DNA from: Vulcanimicrobiota bacterium
GTDB lineage: Bacteria > Vulcanimicrobiota > Vulcanimicrobiia > Vulcanimicrobiales > Vulcanimicrobiaceae
Direction of reading: 5' to 3'
DNA length: 64,000 nt
Assembly: GCA_963777315.1 (NCBI GenBank)
Contig: CAVZQC010000003.1
Coordinates: forward strand, 11,009-75,008
Positions 32,582-48,892 of this stretch are shown piece after piece (position 1 is the stretch's first letter; the number at the start of each line of letters is the position of its first letter). The translations under genes and the position numbers were made by a program. The notes under the pieces are model-generated. The model did not search any database and was not told the origin of the DNA. It was given only the letters and a program-made list of their open reading frames with translations.

Positions 32582-34095
32582 CCGCGCAGCAGTTCCTCGA
32601 GCGCGATCCCATCGGGACAGCCTAGTCCCGTGCACGGGTTCCATCCCGCTTGCGCGTTGTAGACTCCATTACTCCCGCCAACCACCTCCCGCATGGGTTG
32701 TGGATTCGAACCATAGAGCAGCGGCGCGAAAAAGCCGATAGGTTTCGAAAGCCGTTCGTTCAGCCGTGCAGCAAGCGCCGCCCACATCGGTGCGACTGCG
32801 CTCGTTCCCCCTGCGGCTAATTCCGTGCCGTTGAGATATACCAAATATCCCGGCGATTCTTGTGCTGCAACGTCGGGCACACCCCGTCCCGGCGTCACCC
32901 GCAGCGCAGCCGCAACTTCTCGTGCACGATCTTGCCACGCGGGCAGTGGAAAATGCTCGCTGAATCCGCCGCCCGTGTGCTCCCATGCAACCTCAGCGCC
33001 CCCGGATTGAATTTGCGTCGCTCCGGCGGCGTGCGCGAAGGGTGCCGATGCAGGCGCAACGACGTGCGGCTTTCCATCGAGCTGCAGTTCGGCGCCATGA
33101 TCTCCTGAAGAGCAAATAACGGTTATGCCGAGTAATGCCGCCGCCGCGAACAAGTCGTTTAAAATATCGAGTGCGCAAGGGGTCCACAGCGGCTCTGGCC
33201 ATCCGTAACTGACGGATATAATCGAGGGGCGCATCTCCTCGTCGAAAACCGCGGCGCGCAGCGCGTCTAGGAGGCCGCGCTCGTCGTCGGGCGCCTGATA
33301 CAGCACGATGCGCGCATCGGGTGCGAGCGCTGCGGCAATTTGCACGTCCAGCGCCGCCTCCAAGTCTTTGACCGTTTCTATCTCGTGGACCAGGCTCGCG
33401 TTGTCGAGGCGTTTCACCTGCGGCTGCTGCGTCGTAAGTGACTGTGCCTGCATGCATTGGGCGAAATCATCCTCGCGAAACTCGCCGCGCAATTGCAGGA
33501 TAGCGATGGTTTGGCCACGCCCGGTGGCCTGGGGAAAGCGGTAGCGTTCCGCTATTTCGGCCGCGCGAAGCGGCGATTCGCGGCGTTGCAAAGCGCCCAA
33601 CCTCTGCGAACGCGGCCACTGGTGAAACCCGAACACGCCCCGCAGTAACGCCGCGATTTCCGCCGGCGCATGCAACGCGCCGTCGCGATGGCGGAAACGG
33701 TATCCGCTGGAATCCTCGAACGTCGCGACGGAAGCTCCGAACGCTTCGATGGAACGATCCAACGGTGCGCGCAAGACCAAGCAACGCCAGTGCTGTTCGA
33801 GGACTTCAATGCGGTGACGAGTGCAGTATGCCCGAAATTCATCGATGGCGCTATCGTCGGCCGCGCTTGCCTTAACCAGGGCCGCGCGTTCTGCATACGT
33901 TCGCGCGCCGATGGAAGTGTGGCCGATCTCGTACGCTCGGCTCACATCCACCGCGTTCTGCGCGTGGGGCTGCAGCCAGGCCGTCAGTAAGACCTCGTTC
34001 TCCGCTCGAACGTCTCCTACGCGCGTACTCGCCGGCCACTGTGTGCGTTTCGTTCCTGGAATGGCAACGCTCGTCATGCGTGGCAGATTGGACAA
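32578..34095 (-). CDS. S53 (sedolisin/kumamolisin-type) serine peptidase with a pro-domain
   Basis: N-terminal pro-kumamolisin-like activation region, then SGDHGA and GGTSAVAPMWAAL catalytic motifs. Confidence 0.85.
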   Translation of the reverse strand: MSNLPRMTSVAIPGTKRTQWPASTRVGDVRAENEVLLTAWLQPHAQNAVDVSRAYEIGHTSIGARTYAERAALVKASAADDSAIDEFRAYCTRHRIEVLEQHWRCLVLRAPLDRSIEAFGASVATFEDSSGYRFRHRDGALHAPAEIAALLRGVFGFHQWPRSQRLGALQRRESPLRAAEIAERYRFPQATGRGQTIAILQLRGEFREDDFAQCMQAQSLTTQQPQVKRLDNASLVHEIETVKDLEAALDVQIAAALAPDARIVLYQAPDDERGLLDALRAAVFDEEMRPSIISVSYGWPEPLWTPCALDILNDLFAAAALLGITVICSSGDHGAELQLDGKPHVVAPASAPFAHAAGATQIQSGGAEVAWEHTGGGFSEHFPLPAWQDRAREVAAALRVTPGRGVPDVAAQESPGYLVYLNGTELAAGGTSAVAPMWAALAARLNERLSKPIGFFAPLLYGSNPQPMREVVGGSNGVYNAQAGWNPCTGLGCPDGIALEELLRG

Positions 34096-34163
34096 GGGTG
34101 AAACGGAACCCGCCGGCCGGCGCGTTCGGCGGAGGGAAGCAACCCCAGCACGAAGCAGGTCGT

Positions 34164-36962
34164 ATGGGGATGCAGGCTGAGGCCGAAAACACGGTCTCCG
34201 TTCTCCCTACCGGTACGGTGACGTTTTTGTTTTCGGATATCGAAGGCAGCACCGTGCGGTGGGAAAGCGCGCCCGATGCAATGGCGCTTGCGTTAGCGCG
34301 CCATGACGCGATGATGCGCGAGCTCATCGAAGCGCACGGCGGATACGTGTTTAAAACGATCGGAGATGCTTTCTGCGCGGCCTTCGCAAGTACGCCTGAA
34401 GCGACCGCCGCCGCCCTTGACGCCCAGCGCGCCCTTATCGCCGAAGATTTTTCGCACGTCGACGGACTGCGCGTGCGCATGGCACTGCATTCGGGAACTT
34501 GCGGCGAGCGCGGCGGCGACTACTTCGGTCCCACCGTCAATCGGGTTGCGAGGTTGCTCGCAATCGGTCATGGCGGTCAGGTGCTGCTCTCGCGTGCCTG
34601 CGCGGAGCTCCTACGCGGTGACACGCCGCAATACGCTCTGCGCGATCTCGGCAGCCACCGGCTCAAGGACCTCTCCCAACCGGAATACGTCTATCAGCTG
34701 ATGGCGCCGGAATTGCCCGACGCGTTTCCGGAGTTGCTCTCGCTCGATCATCTGTCAAACAATTTGCCGGCTCAATTAACGTCGTTCGTCGGACGCGAGG
34801 AGGTGATGGGTGAGATTAAGGCGCTGCTCGCGCATAACCGGCTCGTGACGCTCGTCGGAACGGGCGGTGCGGGCAAGACGCGTTGTGCGATTCAGGTCGG
34901 CGCAGAATTGCTCGACGGTTCGGGCGACGGCGTATGGTTAGCCGAACTGGCGCCGATCTCCGACGCCTCGCTCGTCACGAGTGCCATTGCGCGCGCATTG
35001 AACGTACAAGCATCGCCGAACCGCCCGATACTGGATACGCTGATCGGTTATCTCAAGCGTAAACGGCTGCTGCTGATTCTTGACAACTGCGAACACGTCA
35101 TCGACGAAGCGCGAACCGTCGCGAGCGCAATACTGCGGGCTTCTCCCGAGGTGCGTATTCTCGTAACGAGCCGTGAGGCGTTGAATATTGCGGGCGAACG
35201 GCTCTATCGCATGCCTTCGCTTGCCGTGCCGCCTACAACGCAGGCGCTATCGCCGCAGGACATCCTCGGATTCGGTGCCTCATTGCTTTTTAGCGACCGA
35301 GCCTTGTCCGTGACCGATCGATTTACGTTGACGGATGAGAACGTCTCGCATGTCGCGGAGATCTGCCGGAGACTCGATGGGATTCCACTGGCCATTGAAC
35401 TGGCGGCCGCACGGGTGAAAGTGCTCTCGCCCAAGCACATCGCGCAGATGCTCGACGAGCGCTTCCGTTTGCTGACCGGCGGCGATCGCAATGCGCTGCC
35501 GCGCCAGCAGACCATGCGCGCCCTGATCGATTGGAGCTACGATCTGCTCACGGACGACGAACGAGCGCTTTTCCGCAAACTCTCGATCTTCGCCGGCGGC
35601 TTCACGCTGGAGGCCGCCGCGATCGTATGCACCGGGAGCGAGATGGATGAAATCGCCATGCTGGATCCGCTTTCGTCGCTCGTAGACAAGTCGCTCCTGC
35701 AAGCCGAGCAAGTTGAAAGTGGGACGCGGTACCGATTCTTGGAATCCACGCGGCAATATGCCCGCGAGCGTCTCGCCGAGCATGGAGAGCATGCAGCGGT
35801 TGCACAGGCGCATGCAACCGCATTTCTGACCCTTGCTGAAAAGCTGGGGCGAAGTTGGGAGACGACGTCCGATCGGGAGTGGTTCGCCCAGTTGGAGCCG
35901 GAGCTGGAAAACTTCCGCGCAGCGTTGAGCTGGTCGCTCGGCGCGCGAGGCGATGTTTTGCTTGGGCAGCGGCTGGCGGGGGCGTTGCATCAAGCGTGGT
36001 GGTCGCTGGCGACGGCAGAGGGGCGCAGGTGGGTGCAGATGGCGCGCGATCTTACCAACGACCAGACGCCCCGGCCGGTGATGGCCGTACTCGATCTCAC
36101 GGAAGCCGAGCTCGCCGCGTCGCTCGTACAATATACGGCAAGCCGTACGGCGTGTGAACGTGCTCTGGGGCACTACAGTGCGATTGGCGATGCCATGGGA
36201 ATTGCGTACGCGCAGCGATGTCTGGCCCTCGCGCTGATCTTTCTGGGAAAGATCGAAGAGGGTGAGGCGCTGCTGGGGCCGGCCCTATCGCAAGCTCGAG
36301 CGCTGGGAGCGCGAAGACTGACGGGAGTCGTGCTGCAGACGCTAGCGGACGCGCGTCATTCGGTCGGTGACGTCAGCGAAGCTCGACGCCTGCACGCCGA
36401 AGCATTGGCCAACCTTCGAGCCGTCGGCGCGGAACGCACGGCCGCAAACGTCTGTGTAAATCTCGGCGAAGCGGAGTTTCACGGCGGAAACGCAGACGAA
36501 GCGCTTCGATGGGCAAGTGAGGCGCTCGCTACCCACCGGTCGTTCAACGCCACGCGCGGTATCGCGTTTGCGCAGATCAACATGACGGCATATTTGACGG
36601 CGCTCGAACGGTACGATGAAGCGCGCCTTTGCGCGCGCGCGGCGATCGGCGCGGCACGCGACGCGCAACTCCAAGTAGGTACGGCATGGGCGCTGCAGCA
36701 TCTTGCGGCAACGGTTGTGCTGCGCCCGGCAGATCCCAAGCAGGCGCGTGACGAACGGCGTTGCGGGACGCGTCTTTTGGGCTACGCCGATGCGCGCCTG
36801 ACTGAACTGGAATCGTTGCGTGAATTCACCGAGCAGCAGGAGTACGAAAAAATGCTTGCCGCATTAGGCGCGGCGTTAGATGCGGATGAAGTTGCAAAGC
36901 TCATGCGGGAAGGCAGCCTCTGGAGCGAAGATCAAGCCGTCGCCGAGGCGATGCTCATTTAA
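34164..36962 (+). CDS. Class III adenylate/guanylate cyclase domain fused to a STAND (NB-ARC/AAA-like) ATPase and TPR repeats
   Basis: GTVTFLFSDIEGST...FKTIGDAFCAAF...GPTVNRVARL, then Walker A GTGGAGKT and LLILDNCEH, then a long helical-repeat C-terminus. The start is set at Met 42 of the ORF to avoid overlapping the divergent S53 gene. Confidence 0.85.
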   Translation: MGMQAEAENTVSVLPTGTVTFLFSDIEGSTVRWESAPDAMALALARHDAMMRELIEAHGGYVFKTIGDAFCAAFASTPEATAAALDAQRALIAEDFSHVDGLRVRMALHSGTCGERGGDYFGPTVNRVARLLAIGHGGQVLLSRACAELLRGDTPQYALRDLGSHRLKDLSQPEYVYQLMAPELPDAFPELLSLDHLSNNLPAQLTSFVGREEVMGEIKALLAHNRLVTLVGTGGAGKTRCAIQVGAELLDGSGDGVWLAELAPISDASLVTSAIARALNVQASPNRPILDTLIGYLKRKRLLLILDNCEHVIDEARTVASAILRASPEVRILVTSREALNIAGERLYRMPSLAVPPTTQALSPQDILGFGASLLFSDRALSVTDRFTLTDENVSHVAEICRRLDGIPLAIELAAARVKVLSPKHIAQMLDERFRLLTGGDRNALPRQQTMRALIDWSYDLLTDDERALFRKLSIFAGGFTLEAAAIVCTGSEMDEIAMLDPLSSLVDKSLLQAEQVESGTRYRFLESTRQYARERLAEHGEHAAVAQAHATAFLTLAEKLGRSWETTSDREWFAQLEPELENFRAALSWSLGARGDVLLGQRLAGALHQAWWSLATAEGRRWVQMARDLTNDQTPRPVMAVLDLTEAELAASLVQYTASRTACERALGHYSAIGDAMGIAYAQRCLALALIFLGKIEEGEALLGPALSQARALGARRLTGVVLQTLADARHSVGDVSEARRLHAEALANLRAVGAERTAANVCVNLGEAEFHGGNADEALRWASEALATHRSFNATRGIAFAQINMTAYLTALERYDEARLCARAAIGAARDAQLQVGTAWALQHLAATVVLRPADPKQARDERRCGTRLLGYADARLTELESLREFTEQQEYEKMLAALGAALDADEVAKLMREGSLWSEDQAVAEAMLI

Positions 36963-37018: not shown

Positions 37019-38221
37019 TCAAGGCTTTCCGCGCTTCTTCGTGTGCCACCAAGTCCAGGATGGCCTTCGGCGCGTTTTGCGCAAAGCGGGCTGGGCCGCC
37101 GAAGGGGCGACCGGAGCAGGGCGAAAGTTCATGATGACGACGCGAAGTATACCGGCCACCGGCACCGCGAGCAGAAGGCCCGGAATACCGGCCAGCTCAC
37201 CGCCTGCGAGCAAGGCGAGCACGACCGCAAGCGGCGTCAACTCGACGCTCTTGCTGACGACGTTGGGAGCGATAATGTGGCCTTCGAGCTGATTTATCAC
37301 AACGATTCCCAACGTGACGAACAGCGCATTTTCTACGCCGTTTGTGAATAGAGCGATGAAGAAGGCCGGGAGCCAACCGGCAATCGCGCCGATGTAGGGA
37401 ATGACGTCAAGAACGCCGGCAACGGCGCCGATAAGTGCCGCATATTGCACGTGCAATCCCAGCAGCAGGAGCGTCACGAGCGTACCAACGATCGCGGCGA
37501 CGATGAGCTGCCCGCGGATAAAACCGCCGACGACGTGATCGAGATCGGCAATGATTTTCAGCGCCTTCGGCTGCGCGTTCTTGGGGACGAACCCCAGGAG
37601 GGTTCGCTTGAGCCCTTCAGATTCGATCATCAGATATGCCGCCACCACCGGAATGATGACAAACAGCGCCCCTACGGTCACGATGGAGACGAGGACGGGC
37701 AATACGGTACTGGCCACGCCGGCGCCGTATTTCGAAATGTTCAGCTCGAGCTGCGCGGGGAAATCCTTGAGGTAATCACGCAGCCCCGACGGTAGATGCT
37801 TGGTAAATGGATTGTTTGGATCGACTAGCGCGGATTGCGCATGGTTCACCAGCCTGGGAGCATCGTGAACGAGCTGCTGCGCGTCGGCACCAAGGATCGG
37901 CGCGGCGATATAAATCCCGAACGCAATGAGCAGCGCGATCCCCAGATACACGATGGCGATGGAGACACCGAGCGGGAGCCTGCGATTCAGCCGGGTTATG
38001 AGCGGAAAGACGAGATATGCAAAAAGTACCGCGCCGATGACGACGATTGTAAAGGTGCGAACCCGCACCAAAAACTCCAGCGCCTTATAGAGAATGAAAC
38101 CTGCGAGTATGGCGAGCCAGCAGATGCGCACCGCGTACAGCACGCGATCGCTGCGCTGGACGAGCCGTAGCCGCGCGGTTTCTTCCTGTTCTTGACGGCC
38201 GGGAACCGTTCCGTCCTCCAT
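37019..38221 (-). CDS. AI-2E (PerM/UPF0118) family transporter
   Basis: Roughly 8 TM helices, with the ending IPYIGAIAGWLPAFFIALF...LEGHIIAPNVVSKSVELTPLAVVLALLAGGELAGIPGLLLAVP. Confidence 0.85.
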   Translation of the reverse strand: MEDGTVPGRQEQEETARLRLVQRSDRVLYAVRICWLAILAGFILYKALEFLVRVRTFTIVVIGAVLFAYLVFPLITRLNRRLPLGVSIAIVYLGIALLIAFGIYIAAPILGADAQQLVHDAPRLVNHAQSALVDPNNPFTKHLPSGLRDYLKDFPAQLELNISKYGAGVASTVLPVLVSIVTVGALFVIIPVVAAYLMIESEGLKRTLLGFVPKNAQPKALKIIADLDHVVGGFIRGQLIVAAIVGTLVTLLLLGLHVQYAALIGAVAGVLDVIPYIGAIAGWLPAFFIALFTNGVENALFVTLGIVVINQLEGHIIAPNVVSKSVELTPLAVVLALLAGGELAGIPGLLLAVPVAGILRVVIMNFRPAPVAPSAAQPALRKTRRRPSWTWWHTKKRGKP

Positions 38222-38301: not shown

Positions 38302-39810
38302 TCAAACGATTTTGACGCGAAATTTTGCAACCACTTTGCCGTTGACCGGCAGCGAGCCGCCGCTATAGGTAAAGGTAACCGTTCCGCCGGACTGAGCGGG
38401 CGCGCACGAGAGCGGCCCGGGCGTGGTCACGCAGGTTGCGCTCGCCGCCACGTATGCCGTGTATTGCGGGATGGGGTCGCTGATGGAAAACGACTGCAGC
38501 GCGAACGCGCGGTGATTGGTAAACGTCAGCGTGTATTCCAGTACGTCGCCGGGCAGTCCATTCACCGTATTTCCCGGCCCGAGGGACTCGGTGATGTTCG
38601 CGACCTGTTTGACGAGATTCGCCGCGGTAAACGTCGTCGTGACCGCGTTCGAAGAAAGTGTTTGCCCACCGTACTCCGAGGGGTCGAACGGAACGCTTCC
38701 CTGCGCGGTATTGACGGCGCTGCCGCTCGAGGAGCTCGTCGAGCCGACCACGTGCAGCGTCGCCGTAGCGCCCGCGCTCAAGTTTGAAGCGGTTGCAACG
38801 ACGGTTTGAGCGCTGGCAGCCGACGTTACGGCGCAAGTGCCGGCGCCGCCGGTCACCGCGCATGATGGCGGTGTGATAGACGAGATTGTGATGCTCGCAG
38901 GGATCGGGTCGGTCAGCGAGGCGCTCGCGGCGGCGAAATATCCCGTGTTCTTGAGCGCGACGTCGTAGAAGAGTGAATCGCCCGGACCGGCAGCGCCGGT
39001 GCCCGCCTTCGCGATCGTGAATGTGGCCGGTACGGATGCGAGATCGTTGACCACGTCGCTTCCGGTCGCAATCGCGGTGTGGCTGCCGACAAGCGCGCCT
39101 GCGGTGGTGTATTCCCACAGCGTCCAAGGAGAACCGCTGCCGATTTGCTCGCAGGCGGCCAGGTCGCCGTTGGGCAAAAGCGCCGCGCCCGTAAGGCTTC
39201 CGCTGGGCCCACTGAGCGTTACGGGACCGGTGACTGCGCCGGTCGTTGCGTTGATCGTGTACAGACTGTGCGTCGCAACGACGTAAAGCGTTTCGTTGTT
39301 GGCTGCAGTCGGAGCGGCGACGATGTCGCCGTTGGTACCGATCGACGTGCTCAGCGTAAGCGTCTTTTGAACCGCGGCCGTGGATGGGTTTACCCAGGCG
39401 ACGGTGTTTGCGCTGGTCATCGTCACGAGGCATCCCGCAGCGCAATACTTCGTCGTAGGATCGAACGACATGCGCGCCTCCGTACCGGACAAACCGGAGA
39501 TCGATCCCACGATCGTTGCGGCACCATAGGCCGTTGCCGACGTCGGCGCGTTCGGATTGAAAGCCGCCTTGACCAGCTGCCCGGAAGCATTCGAAACGTA
39601 CAGATTGCCGCTCAAGTCCTGCGCCAGATCCTGGGCGCTGGTTCCCGAAAAAATACTCCCGTACGATTGAACGACGGAGCCCGACGTGGTGTCGATGAGA
39701 TAGACGCCGGCGCTGTCGCTGAGCACCATGATGGTTGCCGCGCGTCCGGCAGCCATCGCACCGATCCATCCCAGCACGGCCAGCGCCGCCGCAAGAAGAT
39801 AGCGGCGCAT
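38302..39810 (-). CDS. Secreted protein: beta-propeller-like N-terminal half plus two DUF11/TIGR01451-type repeats (operon gene 5)
   Basis: Signal peptide MRRYLLAAALAVLGWIGAMAAGRA. GPGDSLFYDVALKNTGYFAAASASLTDPIP and GLPGDVLEYTLTFTNHRAFALQSFSISDPIP are repeat signatures. The start abuts the stop of gene 4. Confidence 0.7.
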   Translation of the reverse strand: MRRYLLAAALAVLGWIGAMAAGRAATIMVLSDSAGVYLIDTTSGSVVQSYGSIFSGTSAQDLAQDLSGNLYVSNASGQLVKAAFNPNAPTSATAYGAATIVGSISGLSGTEARMSFDPTTKYCAAGCLVTMTSANTVAWVNPSTAAVQKTLTLSTSIGTNGDIVAAPTAANNETLYVVATHSLYTINATTGAVTGPVTLSGPSGSLTGAALLPNGDLAACEQIGSGSPWTLWEYTTAGALVGSHTAIATGSDVVNDLASVPATFTIAKAGTGAAGPGDSLFYDVALKNTGYFAAASASLTDPIPASITISSITPPSCAVTGGAGTCAVTSAASAQTVVATASNLSAGATATLHVVGSTSSSSGSAVNTAQGSVPFDPSEYGGQTLSSNAVTTTFTAANLVKQVANITESLGPGNTVNGLPGDVLEYTLTFTNHRAFALQSFSISDPIPQYTAYVAASATCVTTPGPLSCAPAQSGGTVTFTYSGGSLPVNGKVVAKFRVKIV

Positions 39811-42800
39811 CTACCGGCTTGCCCCCCAGCCGAAGATGCGATCGATGAGGGTTGTGAACGTGAAATAGAATCCCTTGCGTTGCGGCTTTCCGCTCAACGT
39901 CGGATCGATGCTCCCGGAAAAATTGTATCCGGCTGCCAGACGCGCGTCGTTGCCGATTGTGTAACCCGCCTCGGCGGCCACGTCGGTCGTTTGCGCACCG
40001 GGAACGTTGGCCGCATTCAACATCCGCAGCTCAGCGCCCACGTCGAACCGCGTTCCGACGTTTTGACGGGCCCGTAGTCCGAAAAGTGAGGTGTGGGCGG
40101 CGTAATAGCCGTCTCCGTCGAGTTTCTCGGCCACTCTTCCAGCCAGTTCGAACGTATTCCATGGCCGGTACACTTCTTCGAAGGAAAGCACGTCGGTGCG
40201 CTCGGGCAGCAAGGACGAAGTTCCGGTGAGGCGCTCATAGCCGAGCAACGATACCAAGGTGTCGTTGTTCTGCGGACGATAGGCGAGCGAGATGCGGTCG
40301 TCGGCGGCGTTCGTGCCGCTTCCGGAAACCTGATTGAGCGTTCCGAGCACCGCAATATTCGGTCCGACGTGGCCGGTAAGACCTCCGCTGAACGTGGTTC
40401 CTCCCAGCGACCCGGTACGCGACTGATATGCCAGGGCCGCGCGAAAATCTTTGGAATCGGAATAGGCAACCGAGCCGCCGTAGACGGTAAATCCTGCGGC
40501 GCCCGCGCCGGACGCGTTCGCCTGCTGCATCGTGAGGTTTCCACTGAGCCGTTTACCGATGCTGAATTTTTGCGTGACGCCGAGCGCGGAGTAGATGTCA
40601 GTAGCGTTTCCGGTATCCGTAATCAGATAATCGCTCTCAACGTTCATGGCCGGGCTCATCGCGCGTTCGAAGCCGATTTGCGTCGAACGCGTTCCAAGGT
40701 TCGTCAATCCGAGCGCGCCTGCAGATTGCGCGAACGCCGTTGCAGCAGAATCGCTGAGCAGTTGCCGCACGAACACTTTGCTGCGGTCGTCGAACGCATA
40801 ACTCAATTCAGCGGAGGTTTGTGCCGGCTGCGTGGTCTGCGCGGTTGCTCCGGTCAGATCCTGATCGCGCTGAACGTTCAAGCCGACGCGCTTGCTCGGT
40901 TTCCAGTCGAAGCCGAGCTGAGCTTGCATTTGCGTGGAGCGTTGCAGCACATTCGGCTCAGGGGAGCTGCCCGTGAGCGGCGGCGATATGGTCAGTGGAA
41001 CGTTTTGCTGCGCGTGCGCCTGGACGCCGAACAGCAGCGAAATCGTTTTGTTCACCGCTGTATTCCACAGCAGGCTCGCGTTGTTTTGCGCGTCTTCAAC
41101 GCCCGCTCCATGATTGCGCTGGCCATCGGCTTCGAGCGTCAACGTCTGGCCGGGCGCTGCATGACGAGACCACGCAACGCGATAATTGGTAAAGCCCGGC
41201 GAGGATATCCCGCCGAACGGGTCGGCGAAACCGGCTGCGGTGTCTTGATACAGCGCGTCGATTTGATTGGGGCCAATGCGGTCGTTCAAGGTGAGATCGA
41301 TCGCGTTGCCGCCGCCCCCGCTCGAAAGTTGACCCCCCGTAACGCCGGGCGCCGACCCCGAACTCGACGCGTGTGAAAGTATCCACTGGCCGCCCGGAAG
41401 CTTTCCGGTTAATGATTGCGAGACCAAGGAGAAGTTCGATGCTCCGGTGGCATCGTTGACGTAGGAAACGCGCAGTTTGGCTGCCGCTGAGCCGCCGATA
41501 TCGACCCATGCGTTGCCTCCGGTTACTGCCGAATGCGTGGCGATTCCTTGATACTGATACTGCAGCTGCAGCACCTGAGGATTGAAATAGGGGTCGAACG
41601 GCAGCGGAACGTTGATGAAACGCAGCGTTCCGGTTGCATAATCTATCGTGTAATCGACGTTTCGAATCAACGGCGTTTGCGAGATGACGGCGCCGGTTCG
41701 CCGGTCTATCGACGCAAGGGTGATGTAATCGGATCCGACGACGATGTCGGGCTGCAGCGGCTGCGCAAGCGTCAAAAGGCCGCTCACGGGAATGGTCGTC
41801 GAGACGTACGCCACTTGATTGCGCGCCGTGAACGCGTTCACATGAATGTGAGAATCCTTGTTCGCCAACTCGACTTTTGCACCCGAGAGCAACTGTCGAT
41901 ACGCGCCAACCGCGTTGTCATCGCCGGCGGTTGCTTGAAATTGTCCCCACATGATACTGTCGCGTCCGCTGTCGAGGCGTGCGTACAACCGATCGTTGGA
42001 CTCAAAATCGGAAGATCGCGTCGAGGAATCTCCATAGGTTTGATACGGGCGTTCGTTCGGATCGTCCACGAAGGGACCATACGAAGAGAGCGGGGCAAGC
42101 GTGTTCTGCGACTCGTACGCAACGGTCAGCAGAGACTGTTTGCCGACGCGGCCGCTGGCAAACAGTGCAGCGCGTGCCCGGCGCGCGCTGCCGCCGTCGT
42201 CTACGCCATCGCCGTCGACCGCAATCGGCACGGCTCCGGCGCCTACGCTGACCAGTCCGTTGACCAGCGGTTTACGCAGATAGGGCGCGACGTACAGCGT
42301 TTGTGCAGACGTGAGTTCGCCCGCCGCGATTTGCAGCGTGATGTCGCCGGCCGTCAGCCCGGGAACGATGGGAATGCCGACATGCCCTCCGAGGCCGAGC
42401 TGCGCGGTGAAAACCGCGTTTTCGCTGCCGGGCGAGGCTGTGGGCGCCGGCGACGCGCCGGTGGTCGCCGACGGTAAGCCGGCGGATGCAAAGCGCGCAT
42501 CGCCGCGCATGAGCGTGACCTTCACTGGGACTCCCGCCATCGCGGGATCCCCCCAGCGGTCCGTCGCGGAAACATCGAGCAATACGGCGCTTCGGCCGTC
42601 GGCCACGAGCGTGCCTTGCAACTGGGTGCGCAGCGTTGCGGGAGGCCCGCAACCGTAGATTAACGCCGTTGCCGAAGCTCCGCGCAACCCTGCTGCGCCT
42701 ATCGGGGTGGCGACGAGCTCATTTGGGCCGGGCTTGAGGACGACGCCGAAATATTCGAACTGCGCCGTTCCCCCTTTGGCCGAAGCGGTACGGCGTCCGA

Positions 42801-43140
42801 TGCGGGTAAGCGGCACGAGTTCGCCGTTCACGCGCAGCTCCACGCCGGCGCCGTACACCGTGTCGACGACGACTCGCGTTGCAACTGAAGGCGATACCGT
42901 TTTGTCGGACGGAAAAGCGAACGATGCCGTCAGCGGGCCGGTCGCGGTGTACGATTCATGCGCAAGATCCGCGTACTTGATCGAATTCGGCGACTCGGAC
43001 GGTGCCGGGCTCGGGCTGGAGATCGGCGCGGCAACGTCGTCGCCGGTGGCCCCCGATCGCGTCGCCGCCGCGCAGATCAACGAAATGGCAATCATCATGG
43101 CGCCGATTCGGCGAAGCGCATGTGCGATGGCGATTGTCAT
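39811..43140 (-). CDS. Very large (1109 aa) secreted protein: Big_1/invasin-like Ig region plus a long C-terminal putative outer-membrane beta-barrel (operon gene 4)
   Basis: Start at Met 28 of ORF 39811..43221, overlapping gene 3's stop (ATGA). Signal peptide [59 protein letters not shown] is Big_1-like. The last ~700 aa show alternating-hydrophobic strands and end ...RLAAGYNFSG...KGFYFTFT. Confidence 0.65.
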   Translation of the reverse strand: MTIAIAHALRRIGAMMIAISLICAAATRSGATGDDVAAPISSPSPAPSESPNSIKYADLAHESYTATGPLTASFAFPSDKTVSPSVATRVVVDTVYGAGVELRVNGELVPLTRIGRRTASAKGGTAQFEYFGVVLKPGPNELVATPIGAAGLRGASATALIYGCGPPATLRTQLQGTLVADGRSAVLLDVSATDRWGDPAMAGVPVKVTLMRGDARFASAGLPSATTGASPAPTASPGSENAVFTAQLGLGGHVGIPIVPGLTAGDITLQIAAGELTSAQTLYVAPYLRKPLVNGLVSVGAGAVPIAVDGDGVDDGGSARRARAALFASGRVGKQSLLTVAYESQNTLAPLSSYGPFVDDPNERPYQTYGDSSTRSSDFESNDRLYARLDSGRDSIMWGQFQATAGDDNAVGAYRQLLSGAKVELANKDSHIHVNAFTARNQVAYVSTTIPVSGLLTLAQPLQPDIVVGSDYITLASIDRRTGAVISQTPLIRNVDYTIDYATGTLRFINVPLPFDPYFNPQVLQLQYQYQGIATHSAVTGGNAWVDIGGSAAAKLRVSYVNDATGASNFSLVSQSLTGKLPGGQWILSHASSSGSAPGVTGGQLSSGGGGNAIDLTLNDRIGPNQIDALYQDTAAGFADPFGGISSPGFTNYRVAWSRHAAPGQTLTLEADGQRNHGAGVEDAQNNASLLWNTAVNKTISLLFGVQAHAQQNVPLTISPPLTGSSPEPNVLQRSTQMQAQLGFDWKPSKRVGLNVQRDQDLTGATAQTTQPAQTSAELSYAFDDRSKVFVRQLLSDSAATAFAQSAGALGLTNLGTRSTQIGFERAMSPAMNVESDYLITDTGNATDIYSALGVTQKFSIGKRLSGNLTMQQANASGAGAAGFTVYGGSVAYSDSKDFRAALAYQSRTGSLGGTTFSGGLTGHVGPNIAVLGTLNQVSGSGTNAADDRISLAYRPQNNDTLVSLLGYERLTGTSSLLPERTDVLSFEEVYRPWNTFELAGRVAEKLDGDGYYAAHTSLFGLRARQNVGTRFDVGAELRMLNAANVPGAQTTDVAAEAGYTIGNDARLAAGYNFSGSIDPTLSGKPQRKGFYFTFTTLIDRIFGWGASR

Positions 43141-45308
43141 CGTGTATCCTGCAGAGCGAAGTTGACGTCTTCCATGAGGCCGTCGTCGAAGAGTCCGTGC
43201 ACCAAACGCTGCATCGACCACGTGCTGTTCATGCGCGCGTTCGAGAAGGGACGAACGGTCTGCGGAATCGTCGCCGGATCCACGCGTAGCACGTGCATCC
43301 CGGGCCTCACGGCCGCGAACGAGTAGCGTCCGTTCTGATCCGTAAGGACGGAGCTCCCGTCCTCCAGAAAGATACGCACGCCCGCAATGCCCTCATCGCC
43401 TGTGCTGAACCGTCCGGTGCGATGCACGTCCAGAAACACGCGGCCCGTGATCACGCCGCGCTGCGAGAACGCTCCGGCGACCACGCGTACGTCGGCAGTT
43501 GCGCCGGCCGTCGCCGAAACGGCGGTTCCCGGAATCTTCGCTGAAGCGGTCACCGTGTTGACGAGCGTCGTTCCGGCCACCGCTGATGGAAAAACGAGGG
43601 CGGCGTAGACGATGTCGTGCGTCGTCGAGGGAGGTAACGCCGGAACGTTCCAGGTCAGAACGCGCCCGTTTACCGAAGGTTCCAGCGGCGTTGAGTCCAT
43701 GCGCGCCGTGCCGGGTGCGTACGATTCGCCCGGCGGAAGCACGTCCGCTACTTGCGTTTCACCGAGTCCGGATTGCGATGGATTCCCGAATTGGATCGTG
43801 TAGATCAGCCGATCTCCGGGCTGCGCGACCGGCTTATCCACCGCTTTGCTCACCGAGATCGATCGCGCGGTGAACAGCGGGACGTTTCCGAACAATCCGA
43901 ACACGTTGGCAAGCGTTACGTTGGCGGAAGTCAGCACAAAACCACCTGCTTGCGCCAGCGGCTGACCGTCCAGCGACGAAGCCGTGACGTCGTACAGCAT
44001 CTTGCCGGCATCGAGTTTTATAATCAGACCGATCTTGCGGTTCATGAATCCCGGAGCGGTAATCGTCAGGAAAAACTGCGATCCCCCGGGCGCAATCATG
44101 CTCGGCGCGACCGCGAAGGAATACGCGCCGTTCGCGCCGGTGGTGAACGGATTCTGCGTGTTCGCCGTATCGACGGGCGGCACGCCGCTCATATTCACCG
44201 GTTTACCGTTTGCATCCAATAGCGTGACGACTGCTGCGCCCACCGGGCGATCGGCATTTGAAGGATCGAAAACGAGGTTTGCAGTCCCGATCAGCACGCT
44301 CGCAGGCGTCGTATTGGTGGCGGATACGCCGTCGGCCGCCACTTGCGCAACGTTGGTGAAGGTCGCACCGGTCGTCGAATTGGCCAGAACCGAGGCAGTA
44401 AAGGAGACGTCGAACGTCGCCCCGGCCGCAACCGAAGGAATGCGGACCGACAGCGTCCGACCGGAAAGCGTCGCAGCCGAACCCGCCGGCGACCCGTCGA
44501 GCAGCACCGACGAAAGATTCGCTTGCAATCCGGCCGGAACAACATCGGTGACCACCACGTTCGTCGCTGCCGCTTCGCCCGAGTTCTTCGCGCGAATGTC
44601 GAACGTGACGTCGGCGCCGGGGTTGGACTGTACGATCAGCTGCTGATCGACCGTTTTCGATATCTGCGTCGCAGGGCCGCCGATCCCGGTGAATTGCGGA
44701 CCTTGCGCTGCCAAGGCCCATTGCATGCCGGTGTCGCTTTGCAATCCGTTGGAGGTACCTGCGACCGTGGTTTGCGCCGTAATGGAAAGCGGAAACGCCG
44801 TTCTAAGCGCGATGCCGCCCGTTGAAACGACGATCTGCAACTCAATGGAGTCACCCGGCGGGACGCTGGGCGAAACCGTCGATCCAATCGTCGCGGGATA
44901 CGATGCGCCGCCTGCGACGAACGCCGCGGAGAGCAGCTTACCGGGACCGGTGCTTGCGGTCTGGATCGTGTACGCGTCGGTGACGTTGCTGACGTTCGTG
45001 ATTGTGAACGCGCGCGTCACGTTCGATCCGGCGGCGTAGGCGTCGGTCGCCGGATCGACTTTCGATTCCTTCGGCGTGACGGTGAGCGCTCCGACCGGCG
45101 CGTACGTTGTAATCACCGGGTTCGAATCGGCAACATAACTCTGCCCCGAACCGTCTTCATATGTGGCGGTCGCGGTGTTCTGCACTTTGGAGCCTGCCGG
45201 AGTCGCGGTAATCATCGGCCTGAAAGGCGCCGCCTGCAGCAGTCCCGGTGCGAGCGCAGCCAGCGCGAACACGGGGAGAATCTGCCGAACAACGCGTGCG
45301 ATGTTCAC
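43137..45308 (-). CDS. Secreted multi-domain DUF11-repeat protein with a C-terminal SdrD-B/carboxypeptidase-regulatory-like domain (operon gene 3)
   Basis: GTG start and signal peptide. [32 protein letters not shown] and [15 protein letters not shown]...VADVLPPG are repeat signatures. ITGRVFLDV...[25 protein letters not shown] is the C-terminal domain. Confidence 0.75.
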
Positions 45309-45332
45309 GCCGGATGCGCTAAACGCTTCCCG

Positions 45333-47666
45333 TTATTTCGCGATCACCGCGAAGTACAGGATGCCGCCGACCTGTGGCGTCAGCACGAACGTACCGCCGC
45401 CGACTTGATCCATGAACGCGTTGGATGCGACCGCGTTGCCGTTGTCGTTGGGCGTGCTGGATCCGCCGACGACCGCGTACGTCGAGCCCGTGGTGTTGTC
45501 GCCGCAGGTTCCCGCAACGTTGCCGCACTGATTGGTTACCGCAGCACCCGAGGTGAGCGCTTCCTTCAATCCACCCGAATACGTGGCCCAGGTATTCGTG
45601 CCGGCGCCGCCGTCTTCGGTGATTTTTAGCGTTCCCGCGACCATCGCGAGGGCAACGTTTCCTGCTCCACTGACCGTGCTTACCGGAAGCGTATTGAGAT
45701 AGGCGACTTTGTATTGGATTACGCCGGCCGGACAAACGCCGTTCGCCGGAACGGAAGCACCCGCGGGACACCCGGTTGAGAGCACGGTTGCGGTTTTTTG
45801 CAGCGAGATGAAGCCGCCCGGCATGAGCACGTGATAGGTCGAGTTACTGTACGATCCGGATGCTTGTGAGGTCGCGAGCACCTGAACGTATATTGGATTG
45901 AAGTCCGTCGGCGCGTTTGCTCCGCTTGCGCTGCTGTATTTCACGCAGTACGGCGCGGTCGCGCTCGCCGAAACGGAGATCTGATAGTTGCCTGAGCCGT
46001 CTTTGGTAGCCAGATTCGTGCAGTTATAGTCCGTGTACACGCCGGTCACCGTGACGGCCGCCGGCAGGCTCGGAAACGTAAAGGAGTACGTGTCGTTGCC
46101 GCTCGACGTATTCTGAAGATCGCCTGGAACGTTGAGCACCGTGCCGCCGGGGAGCTGGGCGCCGAACGTGCCGTTGGATCCCAGACTCGCTTGCGTGAAA
46201 TCGGTGTTGGTAGTGTTGCTGCCGCAGGTCGCGGTGTTGTAGCAGCCGGAAGCGCCGGCGGCGCCTTTCGGGCCGTTGAGCACACCGGGAACGTTGCTGG
46301 TCGTAGTATTCGACAGGCCGTTGGCCGCAGGATTTCCGCTCGCGGCATTATACGCGGTCGATGGATCGGCGGTACCGTTATTGGGAACCGTTCCCGGCGC
46401 GATGCCCGGACCTTCTACAAAGCCCGCGTTGTCCGCGTATGCCGTGACCGCGACGTTCTTGATCGCATTTCCGGGCGGCAAGTTGGTGAGCGTGAGCGTA
46501 AACTCCAGTTCCGCTTGCGCGTTGCTGACGTTGCCTGCACTCGACCCCGACGACCCGACCGGAATCGCCCCGGTACCGGTGATGTAAACACCCACAAAGT
46601 ACGCGGTGCCGGCGGATGGAGCGGTGGTCGTCCAGCCGGATTTTCCCGTGTTGTCCGTGGTGTAGACGATCGTTGCGGTGTCGCCCGCGATGCTGATGTT
46701 CTTGGTGATGCTGGCGCTCGAAACGGTAAGCGGCACGCCGCCGTTTTGCGGAATCTTGTCGGTGACCAGGATGCCGTTGTTGGTTGCGCTGAGCGCCGAG
46801 CCGGTAATCGTCGTACCGCTTTGGCGAATCGACTGCAGCAACTGCGCGGGCGCAGCGCCGCCGTTGTTCACGTCGATCGTGTAGGTGAGGGTATTGCCCG
46901 AAACGACGCCGGCGGTTTTCTGCAAATCCAAGCGTGCGTCGGCGACGACCGTATCGCCGTACGTGTTCGATACCGCATTGGACGTCGAAGCGCCGTAATT
47001 CGAACCGGTCCCCGGATAAGTGATCGTCGCACCGGCAACCGTAGTGCCCACGGTGCCGGATCCCGCCGTTGTGACTTTATATTGAATCGCCACGTTGATG
47101 AACGCGCCTGCTGGCAGGCCGTAGACGTTCGTGTTTGCGGCCGTCGAAAGATACGTATTGGCTGCGGCGACCGTCGCGAACGTATGCGGCACGCCGTCCG
47201 TACCGGTGACGATGACGTTTTGGAACGTACCGGGTCCGCTGACCGTCGACGTGCCGGCGCCGAGCTGAAAGTAGCCGCTGGAATTTCCGGTGTTCGTCAG
47301 CGTGTAAATGTCGTTGATGACGTTGCCGTACACAATGGGACCGGCCGGCACGTTTTGATTTTGCGTGGTCGAACCCGGCGCAGTTCCGTTGTTCGTCGTG
47401 ATCACCAGCGAAGGCGCGTTCTGGACGAACGTCTGGACTTGATTGGACGTCGAGCTGTAGGTGTTCGTGCCGTCGCTGTATGATGCGCTGGCGGTGTTGT
47501 TGATCGCGGTACCCGGCGCGGTGGAGGATGTCGGCGTTGGCATCGGCGTGTAGATTGGCGGCGGCGTGGCGGCAATGGCGGGTGAAACGCCGATTCTCAC
47601 CGCCGCAAGAGCCAGCCCACAGGCCAGAACGAAAAGCAGGGCCAGCAGGCCGCGCGAAGTCTTCAC
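45333..47666 (-). CDS. Secreted Thr/Gly/Ser/Asn-rich DUF11-like repeat protein, putative major structural subunit (operon gene 2)
   Basis: The start is set at GTG 47666 (GAGGA Shine-Dalgarno 6 nt upstream, 13 nt after gene 1's stop). Signal peptide VKTSRGLLALLFVLACGLALAAV. LDLQKTAGVVSGNTLTYTIDVNNGG is a repeat signature. Confidence 0.7.
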   Translation of the reverse strand: MKTSRGLLALLFVLACGLALAAVRIGVSPAIAATPPPIYTPMPTPTSSTAPGTAINNTASASYSDGTNTYSSTSNQVQTFVQNAPSLVITTNNGTAPGSTTQNQNVPAGPIVYGNVINDIYTLTNTGNSSGYFQLGAGTSTVSGPGTFQNVIVTGTDGVPHTFATVAAANTYLSTAANTNVYGLPAGAFINVAIQYKVTTAGSGTVGTTVAGATITYPGTGSNYGASTSNAVSNTYGDTVVADARLDLQKTAGVVSGNTLTYTIDVNNGGAAPAQLLQSIRQSGTTITGSALSATNNGILVTDKIPQNGGVPLTVSSASITKNISIAGDTATIVYTTDNTGKSGWTTTAPSAGTAYFVGVYITGTGAIPVGSSGSSAGNVSNAQAELEFTLTLTNLPPGNAIKNVAVTAYADNAGFVEGPGIAPGTVPNNGTADPSTAYNAASGNPAANGLSNTTTSNVPGVLNGPKGAAGASGCYNTATCGSNTTNTDFTQASLGSNGTFGAQLPGGTVLNVPGDLQNTSSGNDTYSFTFPSLPAAVTVTGVYTDYNCTNLATKDGSGNYQISVSASATAPYCVKYSSASGANAPTDFNPIYVQVLATSQASGSYSNSTYHVLMPGGFISLQKTATVLSTGCPAGASVPANGVCPAGVIQYKVAYLNTLPVSTVSGAGNVALAMVAGTLKITEDGGAGTNTWATYSGGLKEALTSGAAVTNQCGNVAGTCGDNTTGSTYAVVGGSSTPNDNGNAVASNAFMDQVGGGTFVLTPQVGGILYFAVIAK

Positions 47667-47679
47667 TGATGTTCCTCGA

Positions 47680-48183
47680 TTACGGCTTTTTGGCGGCGGG
47701 ATGTCCGTTGACGCGCACTTCATAGCTGAACGTCTGCGTCTTATGCGGTGCAAGTGCCCGTGGCGCGATCCAGCGCACGGCCTTGTACAACGCCGGGTCG
47801 GCGGCTTTCACGAGCGTTCTTCGCGGCGTCTTCACCGAAAAGGCCGGCCGGGCGGACCAGCTCTTCCCATCCAGCGTGTATTGGACGGCGGCATCGTCGC
47901 CGCGCGCAGACTGCAGAACGTATGAAGTTGCTTGGGGGATGGGGCCGACCGGAACGAGTTTGAACGCGGGAGAGGTTCCTACGTTCGTCGCGACGATCGT
48001 GTAGCGAACGAGATCGCCGGCCTTGAGCGTCAGCCCTTGCACGGGCGTTTGTTTGATTTGACCGTTGCTATGCTGCACAAGCACGCCGCTCAAATGCAGT
48101 TTCACCGCGGGTGCCGCCGCGGCTGCCGCCGAGCAGCACGCAAAAATCGCGCCCAACAGTAAAGGCGCGCGCAGAACTCTCAT
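47680..48183 (-). CDS. Small secreted single-DUF11-domain protein (operon gene 1)
   Basis: ATG at 48183 preceded by a GGGAGG Shine-Dalgarno. Signal peptide MRVLRAPLLLGAIFACCSAAAAAA. LKAGDLVRYTIVATNVGTSPAFKLVPVGPIP is the repeat signature. Confidence 0.7.
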   Translation of the reverse strand: MRVLRAPLLLGAIFACCSAAAAAAPAVKLHLSGVLVQHSNGQIKQTPVQGLTLKAGDLVRYTIVATNVGTSPAFKLVPVGPIPQATSYVLQSARGDDAAVQYTLDGKSWSARPAFSVKTPRRTLVKAADPALYKAVRWIAPRALAPHKTQTFSYEVRVNGHPAAKKP

Positions 48184-48328
48184 GTATCCTCCCAACAGCG
48201 TGCGGTGCACCGGACCGCAACGCTTATTAGCACCACTATCGGAAGGGAAGGCTCGCGCTATAGGTGTCCGGCACTGTACATACGAAAATTTAACGCTGCA
48301 CCGCTCGAGCTCAGCACGCCCACCGATT

Positions 48329-48800
48329 TCACTTCAGCGCGTCGCCGTACTTACCCGAGAGGTTCTCATTTACTTGACCGGTTTCGCCGGCCCAGGGCTG
48401 CTTGGAGTCCTTCATGTCCGTCATCGTCGCAACCAAGGTATAGCGCGGGTTGATCCTCCTGGCGGCGGTTGGAATAAAACAGCACGATACGATGCTGCAG
48501 CTTGAGATGAGCCGCTTGGACGACGATGCTCCGAAACGTCGTGATACGTGTAATGTCAGGTCTCCGAATGGACCCTCGATGTTCGTGGCGCTCTCCAATG
48601 CTTCGGATTTCAAGACGCGTTTAAACGCCGTGCCTCGCGTACGCGTAGCGATCATAATATGTTCTTCGTACGGAGCGCTTGCAACGGAAAAGCCGCGTAT
48701 TGCCTTCGCTGTCGTTCTCAGGCGGAATTGGAAAGCGTGATGTCGATAAACTGCCCGGCCGTAAACGTCCAATCGGCCGGCTTTGAAATTCGAAAGCCAT
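48329..48800 (-). pseudogene. Decayed paralog of the FNR-like gene at 2895..3659
   Basis: MAFEFQ-, then frameshifted. FSVASAPYEEHIMIATRTRGTAFKRVLKSEALESATNIEGPFGDLTLH and YTLVATMTDMKDSKQPWAGETGQV match the intact copy. Internal deletions are present, and the upstream element is retained in degraded form. Confidence 0.7.
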
Positions 48801-48845
48801 CGTGCCCTTAGCGGCTTGCTCGCCTTAAGCGGCGATATAAACGTC

Positions 48846-48892
48846 GGCCACCAAACCGCACAGATAACGTGGACATTTGCCCCCTACGGTGC
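48846..48892 (-). promoter_or_regulatory. Conserved intergenic element, copy 5 (degenerate; the CTGTGCGGTTTGG box is retained, the 5' box is lost)
   Basis: Lies upstream of the FNR-like pseudogene, in the same relative position as copy 3. Confidence 0.4.

Follow-up and report, generated by a model that had tools for sequence, protein, structure and literature searches.

Within a 64-kb stretch of DNA (the window) from an Eremiobacterota (Vulcanimicrobiota) bacterium we find an operon of five genes, here called g1 to g5, which on balance we read as encoding a surface fibre or adhesin that polymerises head to tail and is held by an outer-membrane anchor, an arrangement of a type not yet described. 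We are considerably more confident of a narrower statement, namely that the operon encodes at least a surface fibre or adhesin system that is anchored by a beta-barrel and built with CLIPPER domains. CLIPPER is the new name of DUF11, a CnaA-like Ig domain in which an intramolecular Lys-Asn isopeptide bond can form (PMC12617251). The operon is a real and uncharacterised feature that is conserved in more than one phylum, and the evidence base for the whole system is computational throughout, consisting of sequences and predicted structures. A pattern of N-terminal donor hairpins and truncated C-terminal acceptor domains supplies a concrete assembly mechanism that goes beyond a first-pass annotation of the window, which had proposed a set of subunits with a dedicated outer-membrane platform and no match that it could name; our results support that proposal, and no named system was matched in hidden Markov model (HMM), PDB or Foldseek comparisons.

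All five genes lie on the minus strand, in the order g1 [47680-48183, 167 amino acids (aa)], g2 (45333-47666, 777 aa), g3 (43137-45308, 723 aa), g4 (39811-43140, 1109 aa) and g5 (38302-39810, 502 aa), and the coordinates given below for parts of these genes are likewise window positions on the minus strand. From g1 to g5, neighbouring genes are separated by 13 nt and 24 nt, then overlap by 4 nt (g3 stop and g4 start), and finally abut with 0 nt between them, which is the tightly packed, co-directional layout that the first-pass annotation had described. A signal peptide had also been claimed for every product, and we find a hydrophobic, signal-peptide-like N-terminus on all five as judged from sequence, with an N-terminal helix in the AlphaFold2 models of g4 (residues 3-25) and g2 (residues 6-23). 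From these signal peptides, the Sec pathway would carry all five proteins over the inner membrane. The host phylum is diderm, with lipopolysaccharide and BamA (PMC6664022, PMC9758169). The earlier claim that the locus encodes no chaperone, sortase, ATPase or known secretion component extends to its neighbours, since none of these is found among the ten flanking open reading frames (ORFs).

A tblastn comparison of the g1-g5 proteins with 82 related loci shows that the order g1-g2-g3-g4 is kept by practically all related loci whose upstream sequence is long enough (about 60 Eremiobacterota loci), with mean identities to the window proteins of about 44% for g1, 33% for g2, 46% for g3 and 42% for g4. 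The recurrence of the five-gene synteny in relatives, which had been suggested as a check, thus holds for the first four genes, which stand together in about 60 other Eremiobacterota genomes as well as in members of the Acidobacteriota and Proteobacteria. The conserved unit is g1-g2-g3-g4, with a variable cassette of the "head plus stalk" kind as fifth gene. Some genomes carry two or more paralogous systems.

The g4 protein consists of a signal peptide, two Ig-like domains and approximately 40 modelled beta-strands, in agreement with the Ig-like N-terminus and large barrel-like C-terminus expected from the first reading of the sequence. In the AlphaFold2 model [predicted local distance difference test (pLDDT) 76.5, predicted template modelling score 0.66, from a 50-sequence alignment] the Ig-like sandwiches occupy about residues 70-285 and about 40 strands lie between residues 292 and 1099; as parts of the protein we delimit the Ig-like domains at about residues 55-285 (42286-42978) and the barrel region at residues 290-1109 (39814-42273). 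The strands are amphipathic and are joined by short turns and longer loops, and the model is that of a large barrel-type beta-strand protein rather than a soluble one, as had been anticipated. We propose from this model that g4 is a very large outer-membrane beta-barrel with its Ig-like domains on the periplasmic side. No Pfam match to g4 is found even at E = 10, its alignment used as a profile against PDB sequences gives no match, and Foldseek returns only weak likeness to LptD, SprA, TonB-dependent receptors, PapC and MtrB (TM-scores at most 0.26) together with Ig domains. All of its homologues in Eremiobacterota/Vulcanimicrobiota are annotated as "hypothetical". The most invariant stretch of the barrel family is an insert between barrel strands 8 and 9 (residues 470-516, ...RNVDYTIDYATGTLRFINVPLPFD; 41593-41733), in which D496, Y497, G504, F508, P512, P514 and D516 are invariant and which is modelled as four short strands. 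In the databases it is echoed only by TIGR04189, the SprA model of the type IX secretion system (T9SS), over 23 residues (E 0.009, 13 bits against a cutoff of 200). The position of the insert recalls the plug of ushers, and a role as a plug-like or subunit-contact element is speculative.

Beyond the Eremiobacterota, the barrel is frequently part of a longer polypeptide. A profile search of 1.84 billion representative proteins assigned 3,256 clusters to the barrel family at E <= 1e-3 and 1,320 at E <= 1e-30, and many members are 1,500-3,650 aa long with the g4-like region as their last ~1,000 residues. Among these are g3::g4 fusions of about 1,700-2,000 aa that preserve the g3 domain order ahead of the barrel; P0281 (1,789 aa), for example, carries CLIPPER, CLIPPER, SdrD_B and TIGR04226 matches, the exact order in g3, and P0302 (3,654 aa) carries 19 CLIPPER domains before the barrel. 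Acidobacteriota (Pyrinomonadaceae, Vicinamibacterales) are the source of these fusions, with more distant ones in Proteobacteria, and none is functionally named. Their neighbourhoods contain a g1-like small protein, a g2-like protein (DUF7925) and the g3::g4 fusion, a layout found at L083 and L084 (Acidobacteriota), L085 (an alphaproteobacterium) and L086 (a Pseudomonadota metagenome-assembled genome), and in Acidobacteriota the variable fifth gene overlaps the fusion gene by 4 nt. Some proteobacterial fusions (L086:8001-13982; P0441, P0444-P0447) have a C-terminal OmpA domain (PF00691) after the barrel; as this domain binds peptidoglycan, the C-terminus would therefore be periplasmic and the anchor mechanically coupled to the cell wall.

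A different arrangement occurs twice in one Eremiobacterota genome (L066:2529-12823 and L068, about 15 kb apart on contig CAVVMT010000009.1). Here a 2450-aa protein has at least 15 CLIPPER and four DUF7933 domains with the g3 anchor module at its end, and the stop of its gene overlaps the start of a 981-aa barrel paralogue by 4 nt. This paralogue is without the first Ig-like domain of g4, and there is no g1 or g2 at the site. Because of the fusions and this variant, we regard the g3 anchor module plus the barrel as the invariant core of the system, with the fibre either monolithic or made of separate subunits. Judged from gene order and fusion, g3 and g4 are a functional pair, and because they are one polypeptide in other phyla they may act like a giant autotransporter with g3 as the "passenger".

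The g3 protein is composed of an N-terminal donor hairpin, a CLIPPER domain, a CnaB-like domain, a second CLIPPER domain and an SdrD_B-like domain, with no acceptor end. It is recognised by Pfam DUF11 (69.4 bits, two domains) and by TIGR04226, the model of the RrgB D2-type isopeptide domain (E 1e-11), while a phmmer search of g3 against the PDB gives no match. The SdrD-B-like end reported by the first-pass annotation is matched at the expected place with E 5e-6, but the score of 27.2 bits falls below the cutoff of 29.7. In the domain at residues 214-335 of the window protein, K216, D253 and N322 stand at the motif positions of the isopeptide triad. The C-terminal domain is the most conserved part of g3 (57% identity). 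The anchor module as a whole (residues 205-723; 43140-44696) always accompanies the barrel, and over residues 205-720 it shares 42% identity (E 6e-101) with the final 520 residues of the 2450-aa CLIPPER protein at L066, whose gene is translationally coupled to that of the barrel paralogue.

The g2 protein, which we propose as the exposed bulk shaft of the fibre, is secreted, has several beta-domains, and bears both a donor hairpin and an acceptor domain. Its AlphaFold2 model (pLDDT 80.6) is all-beta with the domains in a string, and Foldseek finds only generic tandem-Ig matches to it (TM-scores at most 0.3) and no specific structural relative. No Pfam match (up to E = 10) and no NCBIfam match is found. 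The first-pass annotation had counted four DUF11/TIGR01451 proteins in the operon; this stands for g3, g5 and g1 (the last by TIGR01451, with Pfam below its cutoff) but not for g2, whose likeness to DUF11 consists of the motif and weak hhalign matches and is not detected by HMM scans. The g2 counterparts in Acidobacteriota match Pfam DUF7925, a related CnaA-type isopeptide domain. Domain 2 of g2 (residues 244-420; 46407-46937) is an intact CLIPPER-type domain with a Lys250-Asp303-Asn404 triad, with an invariant D303 and with K250 and N404 each conserved to 90% or more; these residues were mapped by analogy to the Lys-Asp-Asn of the CLIPPER crystal structure (PMC12617251), and by that analogy the full triad implies an intramolecular isopeptide bond in this domain. 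The C-terminal acceptor domain (residues 615-777; 45336-45824) has Lys624 and Glu684 and no Asn strand of its own, and hhalign aligns it only with the N-terminal part of intact CLIPPER domains. K624 is invariant, T683 and E684 are at least 90% conserved, and the Lys and Glu are also retained in the g2-like proteins of Acidobacteriota (GFVRLDKT...LVITEDG). The window protein ends in ...LYFAVIAK and the family in ...GT.TF.V.VK, in each case directly before the stop.

The donor element is a motif of about 35 residues, G-T-x-I-x-N-T-A-x-A-x-Y-x-D...S-N-x-V-x-T-x-V, placed directly after the signal peptide in g2 and g3, and these two are the only ORFs of the window that carry it. In g2 the hairpin comprises residues 49-86 (TAPGTAINNTASASYSDGTNTYSSTSNQVQTFVQNAPS; 47409-47522), where Asn57 is invariant together with A59, Y63, D65, S74 and N75, and identity among homologues is 62% in this stretch but 27-33% in the other parts of g2. 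In g3 it comprises residues 37-72 (45093-45200), and the motif is kept in the g3 family. The two hairpins are homologous (hhalign probability 98.7%, E 2e-16). The motif is likewise found at the start of the g2-like proteins from Acidobacteriota and Proteobacteria, and the hairpin-bearing N-termini of g2-like and g3-like proteins span three phyla. Among the 70 relatives of one g3::g4 fusion, 61 have a looser form of the motif in their first 130 residues, a few of them by chance. In a few distant fusions (P0441, P0444) the motif reads G-T-x-I-S-S-R-S-S-A-S-Y, with Ser for the otherwise invariant Asn. The hairpin nearly repeats the Asn strand of the intact domain 2 of g2 (PPGNAIKNVAVTAYADN vs APGTAINNTASASYSDG), and hhalign aligns it with the C-terminal end of three intact CLIPPER domains.

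The acceptor side of the pattern is seen at the C-termini of g1, g2 and g5, all of which end in CLIPPER-like domains that lack the Asn-bearing last strands. Coverage of the DUF11 profile in the terminal domains halts at position 67-81 of 114. In g2-type and g5-type terminal domains the first-strand Lys and the acid (E684, or the Asp of x-D-x-I/L-P) are kept in all phyla examined, despite the missing Asn strand. When a hairpin is appended to the terminal domain, the DUF11 score increases from 20.0 to 26.1 or 26.2 bits for g5 and from 22.6 to 31.4 or 29.4 bits for g1, and the coverage reaches profile position ~100-103. By this division the operon has a single donor-only protein (g3) and a single protein that is donor and acceptor at once (g2), while g5 and its equivalents are acceptor-only and have variable heads.

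The small g1 protein is also acceptor-only, being secreted and having one CLIPPER-like domain. It scores 29.2 bits with TIGR01451, above the cutoff of 24, and 21.9 bits with Pfam DUF11, which is below the cutoff and covers only positions 8-67 of the 114 of the profile. It has no canonical first-strand Lys and has Gly at the position of the catalytic Asp, and the g1-like proteins of every lineage examined are without the first-strand Lys. Most members of the family end in ...Y.YEVRVK followed by the stop, the window g1 having nine more residues after ...YEVRV, and g1-like genes with the same kind of ending are also present in Acidobacteriota and Proteobacteria operons. Because the Lys is missing, we propose that g1 is a reversible, non-covalent binder of the hairpin, probably as a cap, a length terminator or a periplasmic chaperone. 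The window copies of g1 and g2 have a Cys near the cleavage site, and lipoprotein anchoring was considered for them and ruled out, as the Cys is unconserved in both families. The g1 gene is preceded by a good Shine-Dalgarno sequence, GGGAGGATACATG, in the intergenic region 48184-48868.

The g5 protein has a propeller-like head (residues 26-255), an intact CLIPPER domain (256-397) and a C-terminal acceptor CLIPPER domain (398-502; 38305-38619) with Lys and Asp present and no Asn strand, and it carries no donor hairpin. After the shared DPIP motif this terminal domain is ~40 residues shorter than the intact domain next to it. The first reading of g5 as a propeller joined to DUF11 is secure for the second part, which the HMMs detect (DUF11 32.1 bits, TIGR01451 52 bits), and weaker for the head, in which PQQ-propeller repeats reach only E 6.5e-4. 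In other loci a gene after the barrel is usually present but variable, roughly 480 to 1,360 aa in length, and full-length homologues of g5 occur in few loci only. The fifth position is occupied elsewhere by proteins with a lectin domain and DUF11, with a beta-helix and SdrD_B, with DUF7933, or with a g2-like C-terminus. All of them are without the hairpin, and most stop directly after the ...F.V.V. strand. We propose g5 as a candidate tip adhesin, and that it and its diverse counterparts, with their propeller, lectin and beta-helix heads, supply the binding specificity.

These patterns suggest a route of assembly in which g4, together with a coupled or fused g3, would form a giant-barrel, autotransporter-like anchor, the C-terminal CLIPPER/CnaB module of g3 staying at or in the barrel. 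Each donor hairpin, which resembles the last two strands of a CLIPPER domain, Asn included, would fill in the acceptor domain of whichever subunit comes next on the distal side. At the base, the g3 hairpin would thus complete the terminal domain of a g2, and along the shaft the hairpin of each g2 would complete the next g2. The hairpin left at the distal end would be capped by an acceptor-only protein, either g5 or an equivalent (an adhesive tip) or g1 (non-covalently), giving the order tip (g5 or g1) - (g2)n - g3 - barrel, with the fibre presumably taking its route outwards through the barrel. As the donor Asn is conserved and acceptors of the g2 and g5 types have lost neither the Lys nor the catalytic acid, the joints may be locked by an intermolecular Lys-Asn isopeptide bond that forms by self-catalysis, an "exchange and lock" that would need no sortase.

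Several observations weigh against this reading. The hhalign E-values between the hairpin and intact CLIPPER domains are weak (0.01-0.07), the g2 C-terminal domain is unrecognised as DUF11, and an HMM of the hairpin finds nothing above reversed-sequence controls in the giant multi-CLIPPER proteins. Appending a reversed hairpin also lifts the DUF11 score (to 22.3 and 26.9 bits), so that only about 2.5-4.5 bits of the increase are specific to residue order. In the AlphaFold2 monomer model of g2 the hairpin folds with good confidence, and it may therefore pair in cis, with domain 1 or with the C-terminal domain of the same protein. For g4, the number of strands, the closure of the barrel and the size of the pore come from a reading of secondary structure only, we infer the extracellular rather than periplasmic placement of the fibre, and g5 is unconserved, with some loci having no obvious fifth gene. 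Because these controls and E-values are weak, the split-domain model rests on a convergent pattern and not on a single significant statistic.

The same evidence could be read as a giant-barrel export and anchoring system without polymerisation, in which g4 secretes or anchors g3, or does both, while g1, g2 and g5 are separate surface or secreted adhesins and the periplasmic Ig domains of the barrel recognise the conserved N-terminal hairpin as a targeting signal, similar to the TPS domain in two-partner secretion. We consider this unlikely. A non-polymeric version does exist, as seen in the g3::g4 fusions and the monolithic 2450-aa and 3654-aa CLIPPER proteins; the hairpin is the best-conserved part of g2, as would be expected of a targeting signal, and its homology to CLIPPER strands is weak. 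However, the fused proteins retain the N-terminal hairpin even though they need no targeting to a barrel of their own, and g1 and the fifth-gene proteins are without the hairpin yet belong to the same operon. A targeting role also leaves unexplained the truncated CLIPPER-like ends of g1, g2 and the fifth-gene proteins and their conserved Lys and acid.

The rate of evolution and the variability of the fifth gene bear on a further alternative, an envelope-structural complex in which g2 and g3 on g4 would form an outer-membrane tether, an S-layer-like coat or a scaffold that spans the periplasm. The presence of the system in most sampled Eremiobacterota genomes agrees with such a role, as do the OmpA peptidoglycan-binding domain on some proteobacterial fusions and the suitability of isopeptide-stabilised Ig domains for load-bearing roles (PMC12617251). 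However, g2 is the fastest-evolving of the four conserved genes, since its identity is ~33% compared to 42-46% for g1, g3 and g4, and this is the behaviour of an exposed antigen; the lectin-, propeller- and beta-helix-type heads of the variable fifth gene point to ligand binding at a distal tip; and in some genomes at least two paralogous systems are present. Subunits with a single donor and a single acceptor would moreover give linear polymers and not two-dimensional lattices. We thus regard a structural complex of this kind as rather improbable. Still less probable, to a degree that we give it little weight, is a SusCD-like machine for substrate capture or uptake with the barrel as the pore and the Ig-repeat, lectin and beta-helix proteins as surface binders of glycans or proteins. 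The very large barrel, its weak Foldseek likeness to TonB-dependent receptors and LptD, and the carbohydrate-binding-type heads on some fifth genes are compatible with uptake, but there is no TonB-box, plug or receptor family match, lipoprotein signals are not conserved in the families (consensus sequences), and hydrolases or inner-membrane transporters are not conserved as linked genes across loci. A fibrillar CLIPPER stalk fused to the barrel would also be unexpected for a transporter.

Among the known surface structures, chaperone-usher pili (type 1 pili with FimA-H, FimC and FimD; P pili) offer a parallel in organisation. They share with the proposed layout of the operon a shaft subunit, an outer-membrane platform and a variable two-part adhesin consisting of a head and an incomplete Ig domain without a donor, as well as one subunit that is both donor and acceptor, a donor-only base subunit comparable to PapH, and the lack of an encoded ATP source. 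The mechanism we infer is also alike, in that an N-terminal extension would complete the incomplete Ig fold of a neighbour. In contrast, no PapD-like chaperone (PF00345/PF02753) is found in g1-g5 or the ten flanking ORFs, and g4 has no usher (PF00577) match, compares to PapC with TM-scores of only 0.13/0.17 and is modelled with ~40 strands where an usher has 24. In length the subunits range over 170-780 aa; they are multidomain proteins of the CLIPPER/CnaA type (g1 being single-domain) rather than single Fimbrial-family domains, the donor is a ~35-residue hairpin and not a single strand, the joint may be locked covalently, and other phyla have the base and the barrel as a single fused protein.

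Type V systems (Va, and Ve as in intimin/invasin) resemble the Acidobacteriota and Proteobacteria fusions, where an Ig-repeat "passenger" (g3) and a C-terminal barrel (g4) lie on one polypeptide; weak Big_1 and Invasin_D3 echoes occur in the Ig region of relatives, and InvD is among the Foldseek matches. They differ in that the g4 barrel has ~800 aa and ~40 strands compared to 12 strands (or the 16 strands of Omp85), and in that the extra subunits seem to extend the passenger by polymerisation. Pfam and NCBIfam scans give no match to Autotransporter, IAT_beta, Bac_surface_Ag or POTRA. For single-chain barrels far above usher or LptD size, the 36-strand SprA of the T9SS provides one likeness to g4, and an outer-membrane barrel superfamily predicted with 38 and 40 strands (Solan et al. 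2021, PMC8346858) provides another, the latter compared by description only. SprA itself has no significant sequence or fold match to g4 (TM-score at most 0.14), and there are no other T9SS parts and no C-terminal sorting domain (CTD) or Por_Secre_tail on g1-g5.

The isopeptide chemistry invites comparison with sortase pili (SpaA, RrgB), which similarly have CnaA/CnaB-type Ig subunits, a division into tip, shaft and base, and covalent bonds between subunits, the last being proposed for our system. Unlike them, the operon belongs to a diderm host, has no flanking sortase and encodes no LPXTG or other sorting signal on any of g1-g5, and the proposed bond would be a self-catalysed Lys-Asn link in a reconstituted domain rather than the product of Thr-Lys transpeptidation. 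Closer in chemistry is BsaA of Clostridium perfringens, a member of the TasA family that polymerises by a donor-strand "exchange and lock" with an Asn(donor)-Glu-Lys(acceptor) triad (10.1101/2024.11.04.621531), which N57, E684 and K624 of g2 parallel. Donor-strand complementation is also combined with an isopeptide bond in the archaeal threads of Sulfolobus (PMC9715654). Both are built from unrelated folds (TasA/peptidase M73-like, and thread pilin) in monoderm or archaeal envelopes and without an outer-membrane barrel, while the split element here would be a CLIPPER domain. Neither a TasA/peptidase-M73-like fold nor a SipW-type signal peptidase has a family match in g1-g5 or the flanks.

With the described CLIPPER fibrillar adhesins (PMC12617251) the operon shares the domain itself, present in g1, g3 and g5, and the Lys-Asp-Asn triad kept in domain 2 of g2 and in the g3 domains, and the L066 variant and P0302 are classic beads-on-a-string stalks. 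The described adhesins, however, are single long polypeptides with intramolecular bonds, and neither a split domain nor a giant barrel partner is part of that survey. In the literature searched, which does not cover all journals, we found no description of the operon, the barrel family or the split CLIPPER domain. Three candidates from that search were set aside: the haloarchaeal tat-fimbriae, which share only the term "DUF1102"; the DUF11 grappling hook of Litorilinea, a single 6,596-aa protein in a monoderm; and an unrelated study of cyanobacterial DUF11 signal peptides.

From these comparisons a stronger interpretation can be put forward tentatively, and we find it plausible without leaning towards it: the operon would represent a distinct class of covalent pili of diderms, present in Eremiobacterota, Acidobacteriota, Proteobacteria and probably further phyla, that is free of sortase, chaperone and ATP and stands on a ~40-strand barrel larger than any solved. 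This interpretation would include a split CLIPPER domain that is reconstituted between subunits, joints sealed by Lys-Asn bonds in a manner similar to SpyTag/SpyCatcher, a base that is built into or coupled to the barrel, and the Lys-less g1 as a reversible cap or chaperone.

The genes around the operon are unrelated to it and include an AI-2E transporter, an adenylate-cyclase/STAND/TPR protein, a DUF488 protein and a GAF protein. The AI-2E family transporter gene (37019-38221, minus strand) shares its strand with g5 and is found 80 nt downstream of it. At the Acidobacteriota locus L084 (18102-19301) the operon is likewise followed by an AI-2E transporter, with a response regulator before the transporter; it is not beside the operon in the 82 Eremiobacterota loci checked, and the association may be coincidence. 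Further downstream of g5, on the plus strand (34041-36962), an adenylate/guanylate cyclase catalytic domain, an NB-ARC/STAND NTPase and TPR repeats are united in one 973-aa protein, which has a STAND-type signalling architecture and is unrelated to the fibre operon. Upstream of g1, a 147-aa ORF (48329-48772, minus strand) has no Pfam match and is not kept beside the operon elsewhere. A scan for promoters and terminators gave no signal above chance, and no tRNA or Rfam features were found.

Two observations were made in other genomes. A 677-aa SLH-domain protein is encoded near the operon in one Eremiobacterota genome (L002:20516-22549) and hints that in Eremiobacterota the outer membrane is tethered to the cell wall in the SLH manner. 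Eremiobacterota-like copies of the operon, with 37-47% identity to g4, appear under other taxonomic labels (L013, L048, L051, L053/L060, L061, L064 and L065, labelled as Verrucomicrobiia, Limnocylindria, Acidiferrales, Rhodospirillales, Binatus and Armatimonadota). The odd labels probably arose when metagenome-assembled genomes were binned or labelled wrongly, the alternative being horizontal transfer.

If the proposed assembly is correct, the operon would represent a new way to build surface fibres in bacteria of the Gram-negative type, in which covalent joints are formed without sortase, chaperone or ATP on a barrel beyond any solved, and it would account for the display of CLIPPER/DUF11 fibrillar adhesins by diderm cells. 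It offers a natural case for studying how BAM, the machinery that assembles beta-barrels, folds a barrel of ~40 strands, and the hairpins and acceptors are a possible source of new self-ligating tag/catcher pairs. More than 3,000 clusters that now carry names such as "hypothetical", "large repetitive protein" or "TIGR01451 repeat protein" gain a testable function, and as these belong to abundant soil phyla (Eremiobacterota, Acidobacteriota) and to Proteobacteria, the system is not specific to one lineage. That lectin, propeller and beta-helix tips are interchangeable suggests a modular form of adhesion that may serve attachment and biofilms in nutrient-poor soils.

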